NCBI GenBank assembly: GCA_023398335.1
Contig: JAEWSJ010000009.1
Span: 55,567-119,566 of the forward strand
Direction of reading: 5' to 3'
Origin: Bacillota bacterium
GTDB lineage: Bacteria > Bacillota_I > Bacilli_A > RFN20 > CAG-288
Length of the DNA: 64,000 bases
The first letter of the stretch is position 1, and every line of letters starts with the position of its first letter. Positions 11,824 to 34,090 of this stretch are shown here, piece after piece. The position numbers and the translations under genes are program-made. The notes below the pieces were generated by a model. The model saw only the letters and a list, made by a program, of their open reading frames with translations. It was not told the origin of the DNA and made no database searches.

Positions 11824-11887
11824 AAAAAACGCAACAAAAATGATAGTTTACTAATGTATTATGCTATAATTAAGTGAGGTTTTAGCG

Positions 11888-12361
11888 ATGAATAATTGTG
11901 AATTTTATTTTTCTAATCAAACGACAGATGAAAATGAAGACATCGAATTATTATTTAATTCAGTTTTGCTTCATTGTTTAGATTTTATGGGACTTAAAGA
12001 CAAAATGTTAGCACTTAGTACTACGTTGGTTAATACTGAGCAAATACATAAGATTAATAAGGAATATAGAAATATAGATCGCCCAACCGATGTAATATCG
12101 TTTGCTTATGATGATGATAAAACTGAACTTAATGATGAAATAGATGATTTAGGGGAAATTGTCATTTGTTTAGATGTCGCTAGAATTCAAGCAAAAGAGT
12201 TTAATCATAAAGTCGAAAGAGAACTAGCTTTTTTATTTATTCATGGTTTTCTTCATTTGCTTGGTTACGATCATATGAAAGGTAAAAAAGAAGAGGAAGA
12301 AATGTTTTCTCTTCAAAACGATATATTAAATTCGTTTAAGTACGACTATAAGGAGATTTAA
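11888..12361 (+). CDS. ybeY: rRNA maturation endoribonuclease YbeY
   Basis: HGFLHLLGYDH zinc-binding motif. Confidence 0.9.
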   Translation: MNNCEFYFSNQTTDENEDIELLFNSVLLHCLDFMGLKDKMLALSTTLVNTEQIHKINKEYRNIDRPTDVISFAYDDDKTELNDEIDDLGEIVICLDVARIQAKEFNHKVERELAFLFIHGFLHLLGYDHMKGKKEEEEMFSLQNDILNSFKYDYKEI

Positions 12362-14404: not shown

Positions 14405-14476
14405 TTGAATAAAATATTTTTTAGTAATAAACTAAATAAATGTTGTTATACTTATTATATAAAAGAGGAAAAAATT

Positions 14477-15868
14477 ATGGAAGAAAAAAAAGAAAGAAAG
14501 CAATTTACTTTTGACAAAATTACAACTCATTTGATGACATCTGGTTTTATTTATCAAGGTAGTGAAATCTATGGTGGCTTAGCTAATTCATGGGACTATG
14601 GTCCATTAGGTTCAGCTTGCAAAAATAATTTGAAAGAATTATGGCGCCATCATTTTGTAAAAACTAATAAATACACATTTGAAATAGACCCTGCGATTAT
14701 TATGAATCCAAAAACATGGGAAGCTACAGGCCATGTGCAAAACTTTCATGATCCATTAGTCGATTGTAAATATTGTCATTCTCGTTTTAGAGCAGATAAA
14801 ATTATTAAGGATCAAAAGCCTGATTTAGATACTGATGCAATGACAACAGAAGAATTAGATTCGATGATTCAATCAGGTGAAATTGTTTGCCCAACATGTG
14901 GAAAGAGTACATTTACCCCTATTAGACAATTCCAAATGATGTTTAAAACTTTTATTGGTGTTAATGAAGAAAAAGCCTCAACAGTATATTTAAGACCCGA
15001 AACAGCACAAGGGTTATTTGTTAATTTTAAGAATGTAATGCGTACTACTAGAAGCAAATTACCTGTTGGAATTTGTGATATAGGCAAAGTATTTAGAAAT
15101 GAAATTACTCCAGGAAACTTCACATTTAGAACTAGAGAATTTGAACAAATGGAAATCGAATTCTTCTGTAAACCAGATGAAGATTTAAAATGGTTTGATT
15201 ACTGGAAATCAGAGTGCTTATCATTCGTTGAAAAATTAGGTTTAAGAGCAGATCATCTTCGCTTTAGAGATCATGAGCCAGCTGAATTAGCTTTCTATTC
15301 CAAAGCAACAACTGATATTGAATATCTTTTCCCATTTGGTTGGGGAGAGCTTATGGGAATTGCGTCCCGTACTGATTATGATTTAAAGAGACATATGGAA
15401 TACTCCGGACAAGATTTAACATATCTAGATCCTGATACAAATACAAGATACATTCCACATGTTATCGAGCCTTCATTTGGATGCGATCGTTTATTACTTG
15501 CTCTTTTATGTGATGCTTATGATGAGGAAGAACTTGAGAAAGATACGAGAATTGTTATGCATCTTGAAAAAGGATTATCTCCATATGATGTAGCAATTTT
15601 ACCTTTATCTAATAAGTTATCAGAAACTTGTGAAAATAAACTGTTCAAATTATTAGCTGAAAAATATAATGTTACTTTTGATACAACAGGTAGTATTGGG
15701 AAACGTTATCGTCGTCAAGATGCGATTGGTACACCATACTGTATTACTTACGATTTTGATTCGGAAAATGATAACATGGTTACAATTCGTGATCGTGATT
15801 CAATGAATCAAGAAAGAGTTTCAATTGACTCATTAATTAGTTACTTAAATAAACAATTTAACCGTTAA
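14477..15868 (+). CDS. glyQS: Glycyl-tRNA synthetase, alpha2 dimeric type
   Basis: N-terminus MEEKKERKQFTFDKI...GFIYQGSEIYGGLANSWDYGPLG matches GlyRS. ATG at 14477 follows an AAGAGGA RBS. The track ORF starts from a TTG at 14405 and is over-extended. Confidence 0.9.
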   Translation: MEEKKERKQFTFDKITTHLMTSGFIYQGSEIYGGLANSWDYGPLGSACKNNLKELWRHHFVKTNKYTFEIDPAIIMNPKTWEATGHVQNFHDPLVDCKYCHSRFRADKIIKDQKPDLDTDAMTTEELDSMIQSGEIVCPTCGKSTFTPIRQFQMMFKTFIGVNEEKASTVYLRPETAQGLFVNFKNVMRTTRSKLPVGICDIGKVFRNEITPGNFTFRTREFEQMEIEFFCKPDEDLKWFDYWKSECLSFVEKLGLRADHLRFRDHEPAELAFYSKATTDIEYLFPFGWGELMGIASRTDYDLKRHMEYSGQDLTYLDPDTNTRYIPHVIEPSFGCDRLLLALLCDAYDEEELEKDTRIVMHLEKGLSPYDVAILPLSNKLSETCENKLFKLLAEKYNVTFDTTGSIGKRYRRQDAIGTPYCITYDFDSENDNMVTIRDRDSMNQERVSIDSLISYLNKQFNR

Positions 15869-15892: not shown

Positions 15893-17818
15893 ATGATGCT
15901 AGATCAAAGTTTGATTGACAGTATTAGATCAAAAGCTGATATTGTTCAAGTTATTTCCTCCTATTTAGATGTTGAAAAAAAAGGCAGTAATTACCTAGCT
16001 ATTTGTCCTTTTCATCATGACACATCTCCATCGTTAACTATATCACCTACTAAACAGATTTTTACGTGCTTTGTTTGTCATACAACAGGTAATGCTTTTT
16101 CTTTTGTCATGAAATATGAACATATTGGCTTTATTGATGCGGTTAAAAAAGTTTGTTCAATTTGTGGAATAGATGTCCCTGAACTTAATAACTATAAAGT
16201 CATTAAGAGAATAAGAGAAAATGAAGAAGAACATAAAGCTTTAGAACAATTGTCAGATTACTATGCTTACATGCTTGATACTCAAGATGGAATTGAAGCT
16301 AAAAATTATTTAATTTCCCGTCAATTGCAAAATGATGTTATTAAACACTTTAAAATAGGCTATGCACCTCTAAATAATGAAGAATCCGTTAATATGTTGA
16401 GGAATAAATTGAATATTCCGCTTGAAGTATTGGATAGAGCAGGAATTACTTCCTCTTCAACCTCAACATTTAAGGATCGCTATAGAGATCGTATTATTTT
16501 TACTTTGGAAGATTTGCATGGTGATGTGGTTGGTTTCTCTGGTAGAAAATATAAAGACAATGAAGCTAACGAAGCAAAATATATTAATTCACCTGAAACC
16601 GTTCTATTTAAGAAGAGTCAATTATTGTATAATCTAAAAAACTCGATGGAATCATGTAAAAAAGATGGCTATATATATTTACTTGAAGGTTTCATGGATG
16701 TCATTGCTTTGTATCGAGCTGAAATTACATCCGCTGTAGGTCTAATGGGCACTTCTTTATCAAAGGAACATGTTGCTCTATTCAAGAAATTAAATGTTGA
16801 AATTAGATTATGTCTTGATTCTGATGGTCCAGGTCAAGCAGCTACAGAAAAATGTATTGCTGCATTATATGAAGAAAGAGTTAATTTTAAAGTAATAAAA
16901 CCTTTATATAATGGAAAAGATCCGGATGAATTGCTAGATTCAGAGGGTAAAGAAGCTCTTGTTGCTGCTATGAATGAGATTGAAGAACCGATTATTCATT
17001 CATTAAACTATAATATAAAAGCTAAATTACTAAATACATATGAAGATAAGGAAAAGTTTTTAGTTGCTAATAAAAATTATTTCTACAATATCAATACTTT
17101 AGCATTAAATGAGGTACTTGATACATTATCATTAGCTTTGAATGTTTCAGTTGACTCCATAAAAAATGTATATCGTTCTTTACGAAATAAATCTGACATT
17201 AAATCCGTACAATATGGAGACAATAAACCAGATAGAAGATATGAGTATACTTATATTGATTCATCCGTTGATATATATAAAGCACTTACAGATTACATTT
17301 TAAACATTACTGATAATGTTAGATTAAAATCAATTAATTCAAAACCAATTGTAATAAATGAATCGAGAATTATAGCTCGTATGGTCATGTCGAGAAAAAT
17401 GTGCAATGACTTTTTAAAGACTGAATCATTTGTTATTAGTCAATATAATTTGCTAGTTAGATATTTTAACGATTACTACTTGCGTAATAGTGTAGAATGT
17501 TTATGTGTGGAAAAATTGGGAGATATTGAAGACTCAGTTGAAAACACTTATGGAGAATTGATTGAGACTAATCAAAAATTTTCTAAAGACAAAGATGAGA
17601 TTTTAGGCATTATTTTACGGTTAAAGGTTTGTCATATCCCTTGTAAAACTAATATGTCTGATAGTTCTATCAGCAATCTCATTGACACTCATAAAGATTT
17701 ATGTCTAAAATTTGATATTTCAAACAAAAGTTTGGATGATAAATCTAAGGAAGAATTGATTTCTAAGTTGCAAAAAAATTACTCAAAAAAATTAGAAGGG
17801 AAGAAGAATAATGGCTAA
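15893..17818 (+). CDS. dnaG: DNA primase
   Basis: Zinc finger [10 protein letters not shown]...CFVCH, TOPRIM domain (EGFMD). Confidence 0.9.
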
Positions 17819-19013
17819 AGTAGAAAAAATTGAGATTAAAGTTGAGACAGAATGGAAAGATTTGTTATTAAAAAAAGGGACAAAAAAGGGATTTTTATCT
17901 CAAGATGATATTTACGCCATTATGGAACCTTTCGATATATCAGATGACCAATTGGACGAATTAATTAATTATGTTAAAGAATCTGGAATTGAAATTAAAA
18001 ATGATGTTGAAGAGGATGAACCTATTATTGATGATAGTTTAACACCTGAAGACTTACTTAAAAATGATGATGATATACTTGAAGATGATAATTTTGAAAT
18101 TGAAGTTGAAGAAGAGTCTATTCCTGAAATTCATGATTTAGAATTTTCAATTGATAATGTTGATATTAAGAATAATGACCCAGTTAAACAATATTTACGT
18201 GAAATTGGTAAATATCGTGTCTTAAAAGGAAAAGATGAAGAGATTGAAATTGCTCGTCGAATTGCTGAGGGTGATGAATCAGCTAAAGAAGAACTTACAA
18301 ATTGCAATTTAAAATTAGTTATTTCTATCGCTAAACACTATGTCAATAGAGGAATGCAATTCTTGGATTTAATTCAAGAAGGTAATTTAGGATTGATGAA
18401 AGCTGTCGAAAAGTTCGATTATACAAAAGGCTATAAATTTTCAACATATGCTACATGGTGGATTAGACAAGCCATCACTAGAGCTTTAGCTGATCAAGCT
18501 CGTACAATACGTATTCCTGTCCATATGGTTGAAACAATAAATAAAATTACTCGTGCTTCACGTAAATTAACACAAAAGTTAAATCGTGATCCTACACCTG
18601 AAGAAATTTCTAAAGAACTTGATGGCGCATACTCTGCTGAGAGAATTAGAGAAATTCAACTGATTGCCATGGATCCTTTATCATTAGAGAAACCTGTTGG
18701 TGAAGAAGAAGATTCACATGTTGGTGATTTCATCGAAGATAAAGATAATGAATCACCATTAAAATATGCTAATTCTTCTTTATTAAAAGATAAATTAAAT
18801 GATGTTTTAGGTGAATTAACAGATCGTGAAGAAAGAGTCATTCGTTTACGTTATGGCCTTGATGATGGAAGAAACCACACTCTTGAAGAAGTTGGCAAAG
18901 AATTTGGTGTTACTCGTGAACGTATTCGTCAAATTGAAGCCAAAGCAATTAAGAAATTACGTCATCCAACACGTTCAAAACAATTGAGAGATTATTTAGA
19001 CGATATAAATTAA
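17811..19013 (+). CDS. sigA: RNA polymerase principal sigma factor
   Basis: Regions 1.1 to 4.2 present. [14 protein letters not shown] (2.4) and [21 protein letters not shown] (4.2). The dnaG-sigA order matches Bsu. Confidence 0.9.
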
Positions 19014-19021
19014 TATTAAGT

Positions 19022-19050
19022 AAAACTGCAGAACTGCAGTTTTATTTTTT
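19022..19050 (+). terminator. Rho-independent terminator after sigA
   Basis: aaaactgcag/ctgcagtttt hairpin followed by a T-run. Confidence 0.7.
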
Positions 19051-19065
19051 TCAAAATGCTATAAT
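19034..19065 (+). promoter_or_regulatory. Candidate promoter of the second sigma gene
   Basis: TGcTATAAT extended -10 at 19057-19065. The -35 is weak. Confidence 0.35.
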
Positions 19066-19092
19066 TAATAAGAGATTATATAGGAGAACACC

Positions 19093-20121
19093 ATGAGTAA
19101 AGACATTAACAAATCCTTAATTAATGATTATGTTAGTAGTATTGATTCTTCAAAAATTGCCAAGTCTAAAATGATAAGCGATTTCATTGATGAGCAAAAT
19201 TTGAATGAAGATGAGATTGATTATCTTTTTCGTGCTTTAAAAGATAAAAACATTCGACTTTCTGAGATTGATTTTAATAGCCCTAGTACTTCAAGTAAAA
19301 AAATATATTCTACGTCTGACTCGTTAAATATGTATTTGCAAGAGATTGGTCGCTATCCTTTATTAACATTTGAAGATGAAAAAAAATTATCGAAACTAAT
19401 CCATGAAGGCGATACCGAAGCTTATGATGAATTGGTCAATAGCAACCTAAGACTTGTTGCATCAATAGCTAAAGAATACAAAGGCAAGAGCACTTTATCA
19501 TATCAAGATTTAATTCAAGAGGGTAATTTAGGGCTTTTACGTGCTGCTCAAAAATACGATTATACAAGAGGCTTTAAGTTTTCAACTTACGCCGTATGCT
19601 GGATAAGACAATCTATTTCACGTGCAATAGCCTCAAAAGGGCACGCTATTGCCTTGCCAGTATATATTCAAGAATCATTAAATAAAATTAAAGGTATATC
19701 TAGTAAATTAGTTTTAAGATACGATAGAGATCCTACCCCAAAAGAAATAGCTGATGAGTCAAGAGATGAATTTACTGAAGACAAAGTTAGAAAACTTTTA
19801 TCATATGATAATTCGGTTGTTTCTTTGGACAAACCAGTTAATGAAAATGATTCAGGAGTTTCATTAGCTAATTTTTTATCAAATGATGATAATAGCCTAT
19901 TAATTGATAATCAAATAGAAGATATTAGATATGCCATTAATAAACTATCCGAACGAGAACGCAGCTTAATTATTAAACGTTATGGTTTATATGATAATAG
20001 TCCTCACACTTTGGAAACTTTAGGAGAAGAAGAAGGCGTAACACGTGAACGTGCACGTCAGCTTGTAAATCGCGCTCTAAAAAAGATGGCAGAATATTTA
20101 AAAGATGGCAGTAATAAGTAA
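19093..20121 (+). CDS. Sigma-70 family sigma factor, SigA paralog (group 2-like)
   Basis: 342 aa with regions 1.2 to 4.2: YLQEIGRYPLLTFEDE, TYAVCWIRQSISRA, GVTRERARQLVNRALKKM. Has its own terminator/promoter context after sigA. Confidence 0.8.
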   Translation: MSKDINKSLINDYVSSIDSSKIAKSKMISDFIDEQNLNEDEIDYLFRALKDKNIRLSEIDFNSPSTSSKKIYSTSDSLNMYLQEIGRYPLLTFEDEKKLSKLIHEGDTEAYDELVNSNLRLVASIAKEYKGKSTLSYQDLIQEGNLGLLRAAQKYDYTRGFKFSTYAVCWIRQSISRAIASKGHAIALPVYIQESLNKIKGISSKLVLRYDRDPTPKEIADESRDEFTEDKVRKLLSYDNSVVSLDKPVNENDSGVSLANFLSNDDNSLLIDNQIEDIRYAINKLSERERSLIIKRYGLYDNSPHTLETLGEEEGVTRERARQLVNRALKKMAEYLKDGSNK

Positions 20122-20785
20122 AAAAATACCAATATCAAATAGATTAAAAGAAGTTGCTTCTTTTATCGATTTTTCGCTTGCAACATTAGATATTGGCTCG
20201 GACCATTGTTATTTACCAATCTATCTTATTTCCAAAGGGTTTTTAAGTAAAATGTTTGCTTCTGAAAATAAATCTGGGCCATATAATAAAATGCTTGAAT
20301 CAGTAAAAGAATATGGGGTTGAGTCTAAAATAAACATTTTATATGGCAATGGACTTGATGTGTATAAAGACGAGATAAAACAGGTTTCAATATGTGGTAT
20401 GGGTGGAGATACAATTGCATCTATTATTGAATCAATGCCTGATGTTTATCGTATTGACAGATTTATTTTAGAACCGCAATCTAATTATGAATTAGTTCGC
20501 TTAACTATGGCTAGACTAGGCTATAAAGAAATAAATGAAAAGTACATAAAAGAGAAAAATAAATATTATCCAATTATTTCTTATGAAAAAGGAATTGAAC
20601 AAATTAATAGTATTGAAGCTAAATATGGCAAAATTGCTTTAAAAAATAAGGACGCAAATTTAAAGAAATTTTTGCAAAAAAAACTTTCTGAATTAATACT
20701 TATTAAAGATAAAAACAGCATTAGAAACAATGATGAAATTTTTGCTAAAATAGAAGAATTATCCACTATTTTAAATTTATTCTAG
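20105..20785 (+). CDS. trmK: tRNA (adenine22-N1)-methyltransferase TrmK
   Basis: LDIGSDHCYLPIYL motif. Sits after sigA as in Bsu (yqfN). Confidence 0.75.
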   Translation: MAVISKKIPISNRLKEVASFIDFSLATLDIGSDHCYLPIYLISKGFLSKMFASENKSGPYNKMLESVKEYGVESKINILYGNGLDVYKDEIKQVSICGMGGDTIASIIESMPDVYRIDRFILEPQSNYELVRLTMARLGYKEINEKYIKEKNKYYPIISYEKGIEQINSIEAKYGKIALKNKDANLKKFLQKKLSELILIKDKNSIRNNDEIFAKIEELSTILNLF

Positions 20786-21634
20786 TATTTTAATTATTTT
20801 ATTAACTAACTCTTCTGAAGATGATGTTGAAGAAGCAATGAAAATATCATTGCTTTTTTTTATTGAGCTTTTCTCATTTTCAGCCTGCTCAACATTTGAA
20901 ATGAAGAAAACCGGATTTGAAAATTTTTCTTTAACTAAATTGTAAAATTCAACGGAATTAGAGGATGATTTATCACCAATAATTACGAAAACATCGTTGA
21001 CTGTAGGGCAGATTGCAAGAGCTTGTTTCCATCTTTTTAAACATTCAGAACATATGTTGTTTATCTTATAACTCGCGGTTATTTTTGTCTGAACTTGATT
21101 AACTAAATCGTTATATGAGTTTAAGGAAATTGTAGATTGTGGATAAAAAGATAATTTTCCAAATTGCTCCAAATAAATGTAATAATACGTTTTTATTTTG
21201 TTCGTATCAATAAATACAATATCCGGAGAAATATCCATAATAAATTTTGATTCAGGATGGTTTTTTTTCCCAACGTAAACTACGTTAAACCCGTTGTTTA
21301 AATCATCGATAATATTCTTTTTAGCTTTAATTAAGAAGGGACATGTTGTATCTAAATAATCCAGGTTATATTGACTTGCGAAGTTAACGTCTTCTGATGT
21401 CAATCCATGAGCGGAAAATATTATTGTTGAACCAGCAGGATAATTAGCCTTTAATGACTCGATATTTTTAATACTATATGTATCTTGTAAAAACTTATTT
21501 GTATCATCATTATGTACTAAAGGTCGAGATAAAAAAATAAGCTTAGATGGATTTTTTTGCCTAAGTTCAATAACTTTGTTGATTGCATTTTTTACACCAA
21601 AACAATATCCGATTGGTCTAATTATTTTAATCAT
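20777..21634 (-). CDS. ispH: 4-hydroxy-3-methylbut-2-enyl diphosphate reductase IspH (LytB)
   Basis: GYCFGV, FSAHGL, TTCPFL, IIGDKSSSNS. These align to E. coli IspH motifs. Confidence 0.85.
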   Translation of the reverse strand: MIKIIRPIGYCFGVKNAINKVIELRQKNPSKLIFLSRPLVHNDDTNKFLQDTYSIKNIESLKANYPAGSTIIFSAHGLTSEDVNFASQYNLDYLDTTCPFLIKAKKNIIDDLNNGFNVVYVGKKNHPESKFIMDISPDIVFIDTNKIKTYYYIYLEQFGKLSFYPQSTISLNSYNDLVNQVQTKITASYKINNICSECLKRWKQALAICPTVNDVFVIIGDKSSSNSVEFYNLVKEKFSNPVFFISNVEQAENEKSSIKKSNDIFIASSTSSSEELVNKIIKILE

Positions 21635-21755
21635 TTATGAACAATTCCTCCTTTGGTTGAATTCTCTTAATATTATATATTAAATATTCATATTTATATA
21701 CATTATTATTTTGATAAATGGTATAATCAAAAAGTAATACGGAGGATAAATTTAT

Positions 21756-32042: not shown

Positions 32043-32140
32043 TAATTATCCTCCTAAAGCATTACATATAATATTATATATTATGTAGAAATGAAATGTG
32101 TTTTTTTGTTATAATTTATAATGGAAAGTGAGAAATAAAT

Positions 32141-34090
32141 ATGTCAGAAAATAAATATAATGCTGATAACCTCACAGTGCTTAAAGGACTACAACCAGTT
32201 CGTGAAAGACCTGGTATGTATATAGGTTCAACCGATATCAATGGATTACATCATCTAGTGTGGGAAATTGTTGATAATGCTGTTGATGAAGCAAATGCAG
32301 GTTATGGAAAAAATATCACTGTTACGATTAATTTAGATGGGTCTATATCAATTTTAGATGAGGGTCGTGGTGTTCCTTGTGATTATAATCATAAGGAAAA
32401 ACTTTCTGGATTTGATATGGTTTATCGTATGTTACATGCAGGTGGTAAATTTGATGAATCAAACTATAAAACAGCTGGAGGACTACACGGGGTTGGTGGT
32501 GCAGTTGTAAATGCCTTATCATCTTGGATGGAAATTCACTCCTATCGTGATGGAAACGACAATTTTATTCGCTTTGAGAATGGTGGAAGCAAAGAATCCG
32601 ATATCGTAATAACTCCTTTAAAATCTTTTAAAAGAGGTACATTAGTTACTTTTTTACCAGATGCAAAAATATTTGAAGATACAACATTCGATTATCAAAG
32701 AATAGCCAATTCTCTAGATGATCGTGCTTGTTTAACAAAAGGTGTAACTTTTCATCTTGTTGACAAGAGAAATGATCGTAAGCAAGACTTTGTTTATACT
32801 GATGGAATTAAAGAATATTTTCAAGTTAAGAATTTTGGCAAAAGTCCTTTATGTGAACCAATCTATATTGAAGGTTCAGATGATGGAATAAAAGTTGAAT
32901 TAATTTGCCAATATTTCGATGGTGATTACAGTGAAAAAATCAATTCATTTGCTAATGGTGTTCGAACCGTCGATGGTGGACATCATGTCAGTGGATTAAG
33001 AAAAGCCTGGACAATATGTTTTAATAATTACGCTTTAAGCCATAAATTAATTAAACCTTCGATGCATCTTGAAGGAGAAGATATCAGAGAAGGATTCAAC
33101 GGAATTTTATCTTGTTGGATACCGGAAACTATTCTTCAATTTGAAGGACAAACAAAAGGAAAATTGGGAACAAAAGAAGCTAATGCTGCTGTTGATAATA
33201 TCGTCGAAAAAAAATTAACCTATTATTTAGAAGAACACGCTGATCAAGCGGATGCGATTGTAAAGAAAACTTTGGATTCGCTTAATGCAAGATTAAAGGC
33301 GAAAGAAGCGAAAGATCTTGCTCGAAAAGGAACAAAATCAAATTCTAAGGAATCTAATCTTTCTGGTAAGCTTACTCCAGCAAGTTCAAAAGAATATAAA
33401 AATAATGAATTGTTTATTGTTGAAGGTGATTCCGCAGGCGGTTCGGCTAAGAAGTGTCGTGATCGTATGCACCAAGCAATTCTACCTCTTAGAGGCAAAC
33501 CTAAAAATGTCGTTGGAGCGACTTCTGACTCAGATATTTTTGAAAATAAGGAACTTAATACAATAATTTATACCATCGGAGCAGGTTGTGATGATGATTT
33601 TAAATTAAAAGATATTCATTATGACAAGATAATTATTATGACCGATGCTGATGATGATGGCTGCCATATATCTAATTTACTTATCGCGTTCTTTTATGAA
33701 CATATGCGTCCTTTGATTGAAGCAGGCCACATATATTTAGCGTGCCCTCCTTTATATCGACTTGCAAAAAAAGATAAAGAAATATATTGTTGGTCTGAAG
33801 AGGAACTTATTGAAGGTCGTAAAGAAATGGGAAGTGGAAATTACACTTTATCACGATTCAAAGGATTAGGTGAAATGGATGCTGCACAACTTGGTAAAAC
33901 CACAATGAATAAAGGTACTAGAAAACTTATTCAGATCACTATTGAAGATGAAGATGAATGTGAAGATAAAGTTAATTTATTTATGGGAAAAGATGCTGAT
34001 AGAAGAAAAGTATGGATTTCAAATAACATTGATTTCTCCTATCGTACAGATGTTTATGAGGAGGTAAAACGTAATGAAGTCGAAAAGTAA
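32141..34090 (+). CDS. parE: Type IIA topoisomerase B subunit, topoisomerase IV ParE by synteny
   Basis: GHKL ATPase and TOPRIM domains. plsY-parE-parC order as in Firmicutes. Confidence 0.75.
   Translation: MSENKYNADNLTVLKGLQPVRERPGMYIGSTDINGLHHLVWEIVDNAVDEANAGYGKNITVTINLDGSISILDEGRGVPCDYNHKEKLSGFDMVYRMLHAGGKFDESNYKTAGGLHGVGGAVVNALSSWMEIHSYRDGNDNFIRFENGGSKESDIVITPLKSFKRGTLVTFLPDAKIFEDTTFDYQRIANSLDDRACLTKGVTFHLVDKRNDRKQDFVYTDGIKEYFQVKNFGKSPLCEPIYIEGSDDGIKVELICQYFDGDYSEKINSFANGVRTVDGGHHVSGLRKAWTICFNNYALSHKLIKPSMHLEGEDIREGFNGILSCWIPETILQFEGQTKGKLGTKEANAAVDNIVEKKLTYYLEEHADQADAIVKKTLDSLNARLKAKEAKDLARKGTKSNSKESNLSGKLTPASSKEYKNNELFIVEGDSAGGSAKKCRDRMHQAILPLRGKPKNVVGATSDSDIFENKELNTIIYTIGAGCDDDFKLKDIHYDKIIIMTDADDDGCHISNLLIAFFYEHMRPLIEAGHIYLACPPLYRLAKKDKEIYCWSEEELIEGRKEMGSGNYTLSRFKGLGEMDAAQLGKTTMNKGTRKLIQITIEDEDECEDKVNLFMGKDADRRKVWISNNIDFSYRTDVYEEVKRNEVEK

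Follow-up and report, generated by a model that had tools for sequence, protein, structure and literature searches.

Second primary-like sigma factors are already known from Firmicutes. In addition to sigA1, C. difficile carries sigA2 (CD1498), which encodes a SigH-dependent, stationary-phase sigma of group 1 (PMC7438776), and Turicibacter sanguinis encodes three sigA paralogues (PMC13492147), so that a second SigA-like sigma is a known theme. The primary-like, non-essential group 2 sigmas, including RpoS, the actinobacterial HrdA-D/SigB proteins and the cyanobacterial SigB-E, likewise comprise regions 1.2 to 4 that are close to those of group 1. The present analysis concerns sig2, a gene for a second sigma-70 factor located immediately downstream of sigA in a stretch of 64,000 nucleotides from an uncultured gut bacterium of the Bacillota (assembly GCA_023398335.1, contig JAEWSJ010000009.1, positions 55,567 to 119,566 of the forward strand), referred to below as the window. 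Comparison with related loci and proteins makes it probable that sig2 is a functional, vertically inherited, SigA-derived group 2-like sigma factor gene, fixed in uncultured small-genome Bacilli belonging to, or lying near, RFN20. The gene and the parts of its product are the following:

19093-20121, plus strand: sig2, intact open reading frame (ORF) with an ATG start, encoding Sig2, a SigA-derived sigma-70 paralogue of 342 residues
19108-19266, plus strand: degenerate, non-acidic region 1.1-like three-helix domain, residues 6-58 (hhalign, AlphaFold2)
19318-19641, plus strand: regions 1.2 and 2, residues 76-183 (Pfam, mapping to E. coli sigma-70)
19672-19851, plus strand: region 3, residues 194-253 (Pfam)
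19933-20088, plus strand: region 4, residues 281-332 (Pfam, residue mapping, alignments)

Sig2 shows the Pfam domains Sigma70_r1_2 (residues 76-108, E 9e-14), r2 (residues 114-183, E 2e-19), r3 (residues 194-253, E 5e-10) and r4 (residues 281-332, E 3e-13), and it shares 43% identity over 267 residues with the SigA encoded upstream (BLASTP, E 7e-71). A reading of the locus made beforehand from the sequence alone (the sequence-only reading) had described a full-length sigma-70 with regions 1.2-4 directly downstream of sigA; the ORF and its four domains bear this out, and the motifs that it quoted as alike in the two proteins are present in both translations. Regions 1.2 and 2 contain the core-binding motif DLIQEGN and the -10/melting segment FSTYAVCWIRQSISR, in which C169 stands at the position of W433 (here and below, substitutions carry E. 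coli sigma-70 residue numbers, mapped onto the MG1655 rpoD sequence). The LPVY segment begins within residues 76-183, its tyrosine (Y191, corresponding to H455Y) lying just outside. The -35 recognition helix reads GVTRERARQ (R318, E319, R320, R322, Q323), and alignments show that the C-terminal tail RHPxRSxxLRxYLD is absent. The AlphaFold2 (AF2) model folds every domain confidently, with a mean predicted local distance difference test (pLDDT) of 83.8. Its top Foldseek match is the model of full-length B. subtilis SigA (357 columns aligned), RpoS structures are also among the best fold matches, and the best PDB sequence match of Sig2 is C. difficile SigA (222 bits).

The sequence-only reading had called a tandem group 2-like sigma in an apparently reduced genome unusual. 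The tandem is no oddity of this genome but a conserved trait of a whole clade: the gene occupies the same slot, era-recO-glyS-dnaG-sigA-sig2-trmK-(NIF3)-ispH(reverse)-apt-relA-hisS, in eight lineages, namely the window, L002, L008, L010, L092 (a 1.18-Mb contig), L093 (GCA_000987605.1), L094/95 and L096. L010 is the GTDB representative metagenome-assembled genome (MAG) UW_MP_BACIL3_1, classified as Bacilli; o__RFN20; f__CAG-288; g__UBA6879, with 2.09 Mb and 43% GC (PMC9302107); the window is at 30% GC. Judged by this one classified relative, the window probably belongs to RFN20 or a near neighbour. The nearest database relatives of Sig2 (P0002 and P0003) are 51-54% identical to it and lie in the same locus position. 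The family that they form is small. A three-sequence Sig2 profile run against 1.84 billion representatives returned about 8 proteins at 319-684 bits above a generic sigma-70 plateau at or below 300 bits, a nine-sequence profile run against 5.8 billion clusters returned 8 clusters at or above 465 bits, the next scoring 364, and in all about 8-12 clusters stand above the generic plateau. Public annotation labels these proteins 'RpoD/SigA' or 'primary sigma factor'. On hidden Markov models (HMMs) built without the window sequence, window Sig2 scores 362 bits with the Sig2 family, 227 bits with the SigA proteins of its own clade and 284 bits with a group of phage sigmas considered below. It also has the shared derived characters of the family, that is, replacement of W433 and H455, the motif TRERARQ (I587A), the motif NSNLRLVASIA and loss of the tail; DLISYGN takes the place of DLIQEGN in the higher-GC branch. 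In several further high-scoring database sequences (P0131, P0132, P0135 and P0136), sigma segments occur in duplicate within one protein, such as region 2 or region 3-4 twice, which makes them look like chimeras of assembly or gene calling and not like real proteins.

Sequence conservation indicates that the gene is maintained. Across four lineages, Sig2 proteins are 45-54% identical, compared with 47-49% for DnaG, 45% for RecO, 33-40% for TrmK, 33-36% for IspH and 75% for SigA. As its identity across lineages is similar to that of DnaG and RecO, sig2 appears to be under ordinary purifying selection and not decaying, while evolving several times (about four times) faster than the adjacent SigA. 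Near-identical strains differ in sig2 by only 1-2 synonymous and 2 non-synonymous changes, too few for a ratio of non-synonymous to synonymous rates.

Among the residues that read and melt promoter DNA, all five -35 readers (R584, E585, R586, R588 and Q589) are kept and identical to those of SigA. Sig2 also retains the core-binding residues D403, Q406, E407 and N409 as well as F427, Y430, W434, Q437, R441 and E458. The sequence-only reading had proposed near-identical DNA-recognition helices; this holds for the -35 readers but not for the -10/melting set, which carries Y425F, W433C, T440S, R448H, R451A and H455Y. I587A is a further change, and the activator-contact patch is mostly altered (R599A, H600E). 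W433 serves as a wedge at the upstream end of the transcription bubble, Q437 and R441 are the readers of positions -12 and -13, and H455 makes an extended -10 contact, H455 and R451 together contacting the extended -10 and the upstream -10 backbone. The tryptophan pair at 433/434 is present in 436 of the 478 primary-like sigmas collected, and the exceptions that lack W433 are the Sig2 family (C, F, Y or L), one phage clade (Y) and three singletons. Since the -10/melting determinants of Sig2 are not near-identical to those of SigA, an overlap in promoter specificity between the two sigmas is no more than plausible.

The N terminus of Sig2 has diverged further. Region 1.1 had been described as absent, and Pfam r1_1 indeed finds no match in window Sig2; a degenerate three-helix remnant is nevertheless present. 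Profile-profile comparison (hhalign) aligns the N termini of Sig2 and SigA over 54 columns (probability 89.9%, E 1.7e-6), the NCBIfam full-length SigA model aligns to Sig2 from residue 8, and the L010 orthologue matches Pfam r1_1 slightly under its cutoff (E 6e-4, 20.2 bits). AF2 predicts helices at residues 2-16, 25-35 and 39-51 (pLDDT 76-89), followed by a disordered linker after residue 58. The net charge of this part is -2 for residues 1-75 and -3 for residues 6-58 of Sig2, compared with -28 for residues 1-122 of SigA. Region 1.1 of Sig2 is thus degenerate and probably no longer a DNA mimic.

Comparison with curated models places Sig2 near the RpoD and RpoS proteins, all of whose NCBIfam models outscore the group 3 models, and within none of the named families. 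The best scores are those of RpoD (248 bits, PRK09210, cutoff 572) and RpoS (239 bits, TIGR02394, cutoff 378.7), with 230 bits for PRK05657 (RpoS, cutoff 394) and 222.5 bits for TIGR02393 RpoD_Cterm (cutoff 354); the SigBFG model gives 114.6 bits (cutoff 234) and the SigF/G model 102 bits (cutoff 311). Sig2 falls below the curated cutoffs of all RpoD, RpoS, SigB/F/G and cyanobacterial models, and the 25 best NCBIfam families listed for it include no SigH model. A grouping with SigH, SigF or the extracytoplasmic function (ECF) sigmas, which would have spoken against the sequence-only reading, is not what these scores show. Sig2 lacks what marks group 1, namely scores above the RpoD/SigA cutoffs, the acidic region 1.1, most of the invariant melting and extended -10 residues (W434 and E458 are kept) and the C-terminal tail, and the sigma role of the dnaG-sigA operon belongs to the upstream gene at 17811-19013. 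Of what marks group 2, Sig2 has regions 1.2, 2, 3 and 4 and close similarity to the SigA of the same genome. By domain content and model scores, Sig2 therefore resembles the group 2 sigmas, while belonging to no named group 2 family.

The likeness to group 2 extends to a reduced region 1.1 and coexistence with a group 1 sigma, and perhaps to the residues that read the -35 and -10 elements, of which all five -35 readers, Q437, R441, Y430 and W434 are kept and Y425F, W433C and T440S are changes. Group 2 sigmas are known to retain both W433 and W434, whereas the Sig2 family replaces W433 and forms a small clade of its own. It further differs from the named group 2 families in its tandem linkage to sigA, in being joined to the trmK operon and in the unusually fast, lineage-specific change of its DNA-reading residues. 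The housekeeping SigA/RpoD proteins share the domain order of Sig2; unlike them, Sig2 lacks the acidic region 1.1 and linker as well as the RHPxRS tail, and it carries W433C, H455Y and R451A. The closest described analogue, likened by its published description, is C. difficile SigA2, also a second full-length SigA-like sigma beside the housekeeping SigA of a Firmicute. The C. difficile gene, however, lies apart from sigA1 (CD1498 versus CD1455) and has a SigH promoter, whereas sig2 is in tandem with sigA and has a SigA-type extended -10 element. C. difficile SigA2 is 56% identical to B. subtilis SigA, and Sig2 is 43% identical to its partner SigA. Unlike C. difficile sigA2 as described, sig2 lies in a trmK operon, and its product is without W433 and the C-terminal tail.

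The layout of the locus suggests that sig2 is transcribed separately from sigA and together with trmK. Its elements are:

15893-17818, plus strand: dnaG (primase), overlapping sigA by 8 nucleotides (nt) (Pfam domains on an identical contig)
17811-19013, plus strand: sigA, housekeeping group 1 sigma of 400 residues (Pfam r1_1, r1_2, r2, r3, r4)
19018-19051, plus strand: intrinsic terminator of the dnaG-sigA operon, with a 13-bp stem (19018-19030/19035-19047), a 4-nt loop and a T-run to 19051
19057-19065, plus strand: extended -10 box TGCTATAAT of sig2 (sequence)
19082-19086, plus strand: ribosome-binding site (RBS) AGGAG, 6 nt before the sig2 ATG
20105-20785, plus strand: trmK, tRNA (adenine22-N1)-methyltransferase (Pfam TrmK, 3.5e-37), overlapping the end of sig2 by 17 nt

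Window SigA passes the TIGR02393 RpoD_Cterm cutoff (389 bits, cutoff 354), has the acidic region 1.1 with its linker and the C-terminal tail, and is 73-80% identical to the SigA proteins of related lineages. It scores below the full-length Firmicutes RpoD equivalog cutoff (PRK09210, 513 versus 572 bits); its relatives have strongly charged N-terminal extensions of very variable length, with total sizes from 393 to 541 residues. Folding and cross-locus comparison verify the clean terminator and the extended -10 element that the sequence-only reading had placed between the two sigma genes. The hairpin at 19018-19047 has a folding free energy of -13.7 kcal/mol (z -3.3; 1 of 200 shuffles folds as well), and a hairpin with a T-run follows sigA in 9 of 9 related loci, the window included. 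In seven of the nine (window, L002, L008, L010, L092, L093 and L096), TATAAT precedes the sig2 start by 17-27 nt, four of these seven having the TG extension (window, L008, L010, and L096 with TGATACAAT). Upstream of the sig2 -10 box there is no recognisable -35 hexamer, CAGTTT standing at 17-bp spacing, and a generic promoter/terminator scanner lists neither the plus-strand terminator nor this -35-less promoter.

In the whole window, TGnTATAAT occurs 10 times against 9.7 expected, that is, at chance frequency. Four of the 10 matches fall in the intergenic 6.7% of the window, at a distance of 18-29 nt from the start codon that follows; the genes behind them are an ORF at 11888, sig2, apt and a gyrB/parE-type topoisomerase B gene (32141-34090). 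The boxes other than that of sig2 are:

11862-11870: intergenic TGnTATAAT before the ORF at 11888
21719-21727: intergenic TGnTATAAT before apt (21756)
32107-32115: intergenic TGnTATAAT before topoisomerase B (32141)

TGnTATAAT thus looks like a normal promoter type of this organism, and three more such boxes in short intergenic gaps, besides that of sig2, point to extended -10 promoters without a -35 element as its usual kind.

Downstream, the overlap of sig2 and trmK recurs with 4-23 nt in L002, L008, L010, L092 and L093, no terminator is found between the two genes, and ispH converges on trmK. On these grounds sig2-trmK(-NIF3) is probably one operon in which sig2 and trmK are co-transcribed and translationally coupled, and the sig2 promoter may be the ancestral trmK promoter. 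The window lacks NIF3/YqfO in this stretch (20105-21634): trmK and the convergent ispH are direct neighbours, their 3' ends overlapping by 9 nt (20785-20777); NIF3 is also missing in L093 and present in L002, L008, L010, L092, L094 and L096. In B. subtilis, the order downstream of sigA is cccA-trmK(yqfN)-yqfO, with yqxD upstream of dnaG; the yqxD/yqfO that the sequence-only reading gave for this position needs revision accordingly. GC content is flat across the sig2 locus, and Rfam and tRNA scans of the whole window give no matches, and so no rRNA or tRNA by which to place it taxonomically. Further upstream, the glyS ORF (14405-15868) begins with a TTG at 14405, right after the recO stop; the public call on an identical contig starts 72 nt later (463 residues), leaving the true start uncertain.

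In Candidatus Enterosoma sp. (RF39; L098:1-3340), rpoD overlaps trmK directly with no sig2 between them. A direct rpoD-trmK junction is the usual Firmicutes state, and because RF39 shows it, the sigma in the sigA-trmK slot is specific to the RFN20-like clade, with a possible second case in some Erysipelotrichaceae. The Erysipelotrichaceae MAG RGIG5726 (L049) has a 336-residue sigma before trmK, which scores 247 bits on the Sig2 HMM and 188 bits on the SigA HMM, and a sigma-trmK pair is also found in L039. Between sigA and the 336-residue sigma of L049 lies an ORF of 422 residues (L049:4507-5775) with an N-terminal CxxC...CxxC zinc-ribbon-like motif and low-complexity stretches rich in Thr, Ser and Asn, for which no assigned family was found. 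A scan of GTDB genomes returned mostly unrelated SigA or group 2 genes with YPLLT and NSNLR, only L010, L039 and L049 being informative. L098 also contains, after NIF3, a divergent sigma-70-like ORF with FSTLATIYIRNAIFSF that is cut by the contig end; the Sig2 and SigA HMMs each give it about 91-100 bits.

The most divergent members of the slot are found in the lineages whose SigA is closest to that of the window, P0365 (80% identical, L096) and P0376 (75%, L094/L095), each of which is followed by a sigma gene and then by trmK. P0376 is found in 383 blocks of the collection, which makes the L094 organism a very frequent one in gut samples. In these lineages the positional orthologues of sig2 have rewritten DNA-reading residues; they are:

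L094:7261-8217
L095:7228-8217
L096:2409-3272

They encode proteins of 318-329 residues (L094/L095; 41-43% identical to window Sig2) and 287 residues (L096; 29-32% identical). The L094 orthologue has SRQWISQ in region 4.2 and TIWIKNFITR in region 2.4, and that of L096 is without region 1.2 and carries ITSAINNSIY and SLQRVNQ. Both score higher on the Sig2 HMM than on the SigA HMM (281 versus 187 bits for L094, 91 versus 63 bits for L096).

Several other origins and roles have to be weighed against the reading of sig2 as a functional, inherited, SigA-derived sigma. Adjacency of the two genes on the same strand and their homology would fit a recent tandem, gene-conversion or assembly duplicate of sigA, a possibility to which the data leave a negligible probability. 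The same gene order, with more than 99.5% nucleotide identity, is found in three independent assemblies of different projects (L001, L090 and L091), so that the sigA-sig2 arrangement is not an assembly artefact, and it recurs in seven other lineages. Nucleotide identity between sigA and sig2 reaches 77% in a single stretch of 105 nt, which codes for the best conserved portion of region 2. Within it, identical residues use the same codon in 16 of 25 cases against 13.4 expected from codon usage, a result that gives no sign of gene conversion; elsewhere the figure is 52 of 102 against 55 expected. Same-codon use near the expectation from codon usage indicates that synonymous sites are saturated, which, with a protein identity of 43%, argues against recent duplication. 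The recent or assembly duplicate that would have undone the sequence-only reading is thus refuted by saturated synonymous sites and conserved synteny. Capture of sig2 from a phage or another mobile element is quite unlikely. Large phage-like contigs (158 and 176 kb; 32-35% GC) of the kind found in gut phages each encode a full-length SigA-like sigma of 342 residues (L004:6001-7029 and L006:6001-7029; also L005 and L007), with gyrB, RNase H, a T4-type RNA ligase, HNH and GIY-YIG as neighbours. These phage sigmas (342-344 residues, the P0004-P0012 group) contain regions 1.2-4 and resemble Sig2 in length, in the short N-terminal domain, in the replacement of W433 (W433Y) and in TRERARQ (I587A); P0006, P0012 and others are 40-43% identical to it over 91% of its length, and trees do not join Sig2 to the SigA of its own clade. 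Unlike Sig2, however, they keep RTIRxPVH and an RNPxRA tail, and they form a separate, tight clade nearer to SigA (200 of 200 bootstraps in neighbour-joining (NJ) trees, at least 10 clusters). NJ trees with 200 bootstraps, covering Sig2, SigA and phage sigmas, unite Sig2 with the phage clade only once; the phage sigmas score 314 bits on the SigA HMM and 295 on the Sig2 HMM, and window Sig2 loses 78 bits when scored with the phage HMM instead of the Sig2 HMM, so that a special tie to the 342-residue phage sigmas is rejected. No mobile-element genes flank sig2, whose neighbours are core housekeeping genes, the GC profile is flat, the slot is identical in eight lineages, and a shared AT-rich composition could inflate the similarity. 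In the same trees, the Sig2 family is recovered in 187 of 200 bootstraps without the window and in 134 with it, and the SigA proteins of the clade in 198. The fixed tandem position is most simply read as the outcome of an old tandem duplication, after which the copy diverged rapidly.

As to function, it is unlikely that Sig2 no longer initiates, either as a decaying duplicate or as a core-binding decoy or regulator that has lost melting through W433C. W433, H455, R448/R451, the acidic region 1.1 and the C-terminal tail are lost, and the L094 and L096 orthologues are further degraded in regions 2.4 and 4.2, the latter having shrunk to 287 residues without region 1.2. Against such a loss of function, the ORF is intact in every lineage, the evolutionary rate is about that of dnaG and recO and lower than that of trmK and ispH, the five -35 residues, Q437, R441, W434 and DLIQEGN are strictly kept, the gene has a good RBS and promoter, and the AF2 model is confident in every domain; at a genomic GC content of 30%, moreover, the need for a melting wedge may be relaxed. 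An alternative sigma with distinct promoter specificity, equivalent to SigH or to the group 3 sporulation and stress sigmas, is very unlikely for the window protein. The missing Pfam region 1.1 match, the missing tail and the altered -35/-10 residues of the sister-lineage orthologues (SRQWISQ in L094, SLQRVNQ in L096) would suit it, but window Sig2 scores best with RpoD (248 bits) and RpoS (239 bits) against 115 bits (cutoff 234) for SigB/F/G, and all of its -35 and most of its -10 residues are the same as in SigA. The following points weigh against the reading preferred here. NJ trees place Sig2 as sister to the SigA of its own clade in 0 of 200 bootstraps, so that origin by tandem duplication is drawn from position, and an old acquisition into the sigA-trmK slot could equally account for it; the branch is too long for NJ trees to place the origin of the family, and long-branch effects are likely. 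Promoter opening could suffer from W433C, R451A and H455Y, or be lost altogether, in which case Sig2 would perhaps be a poor initiator or none. Finally, no recognisable -10 box is found upstream of the L094/L095 orthologue, so that independent transcription of sig2 is not universal.

On the reading of Sig2 as a functional SigA-derived sigma, the following mechanism can be proposed. SigA-containing RNA polymerase (RNAP) would transcribe the sig2-trmK operon from the TGnTATAAT promoter, and Sig2 would then use its conserved region 2.2 and its region 4 to compete with SigA in binding core RNAP. It would be expected to dock on TTGACA-like -35 elements, as all five -35 readers are unchanged, and on TATAAT-like -10 elements, as Q437, R441, Y430, F427 and W434 are kept. 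Loss of the W433 wedge, of H455 and R451, of the acidic region 1.1 with its linker and of the C-terminal tail would cause it to open and escape promoters with different kinetics. Sig2 might in this way serve a subset or variant of SigA-type promoters or a particular growth condition, much like C. difficile SigA2 or RpoS, which are paralogues for stationary phase or stress. In the sister lineages, the sig2 orthologue would have drifted to new DNA-reading residues.

SigA paralogues in Firmicutes are known yet poorly understood, and Sig2 represents a small uncharacterised family among them. Unless confirmed by experiment, these findings leave current concepts unchanged and are a modest addition to a known theme. 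In practice, genome-scale models of RFN20 and other uncultured Bacilli of gut and fermenter would be led astray by the label 'RpoD/SigA' or 'primary sigma factor'. Because W433 is replaced while the -35 and most of the -10 readout are kept, the Sig2 family offers a natural test of the importance of W433 in AT-rich genomes, and a conserved slot with strongly divergent orthologues offers a tractable comparative system for sigma neofunctionalisation. A bolder reading, possible but doubtful, is that the sig2 slot preserves a natural series of steps from a duplicated primary sigma to a new alternative sigma, with W433 proving dispensable. The window copy may represent a stage that still reads SigA-like -35 and -10 elements, yet without a W433 wedge, extended -10 contacts or an acidic region 1.1, L094 one that has rewritten the -35 helix and region 2.4, and L096 one that has shrunk to a group 3-like size of 287 residues. 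If this were true, W433 would be dispensable for a working sigma in very AT-rich genomes, and the origin of new sigma classes and regulons would become visible in these small genomes.

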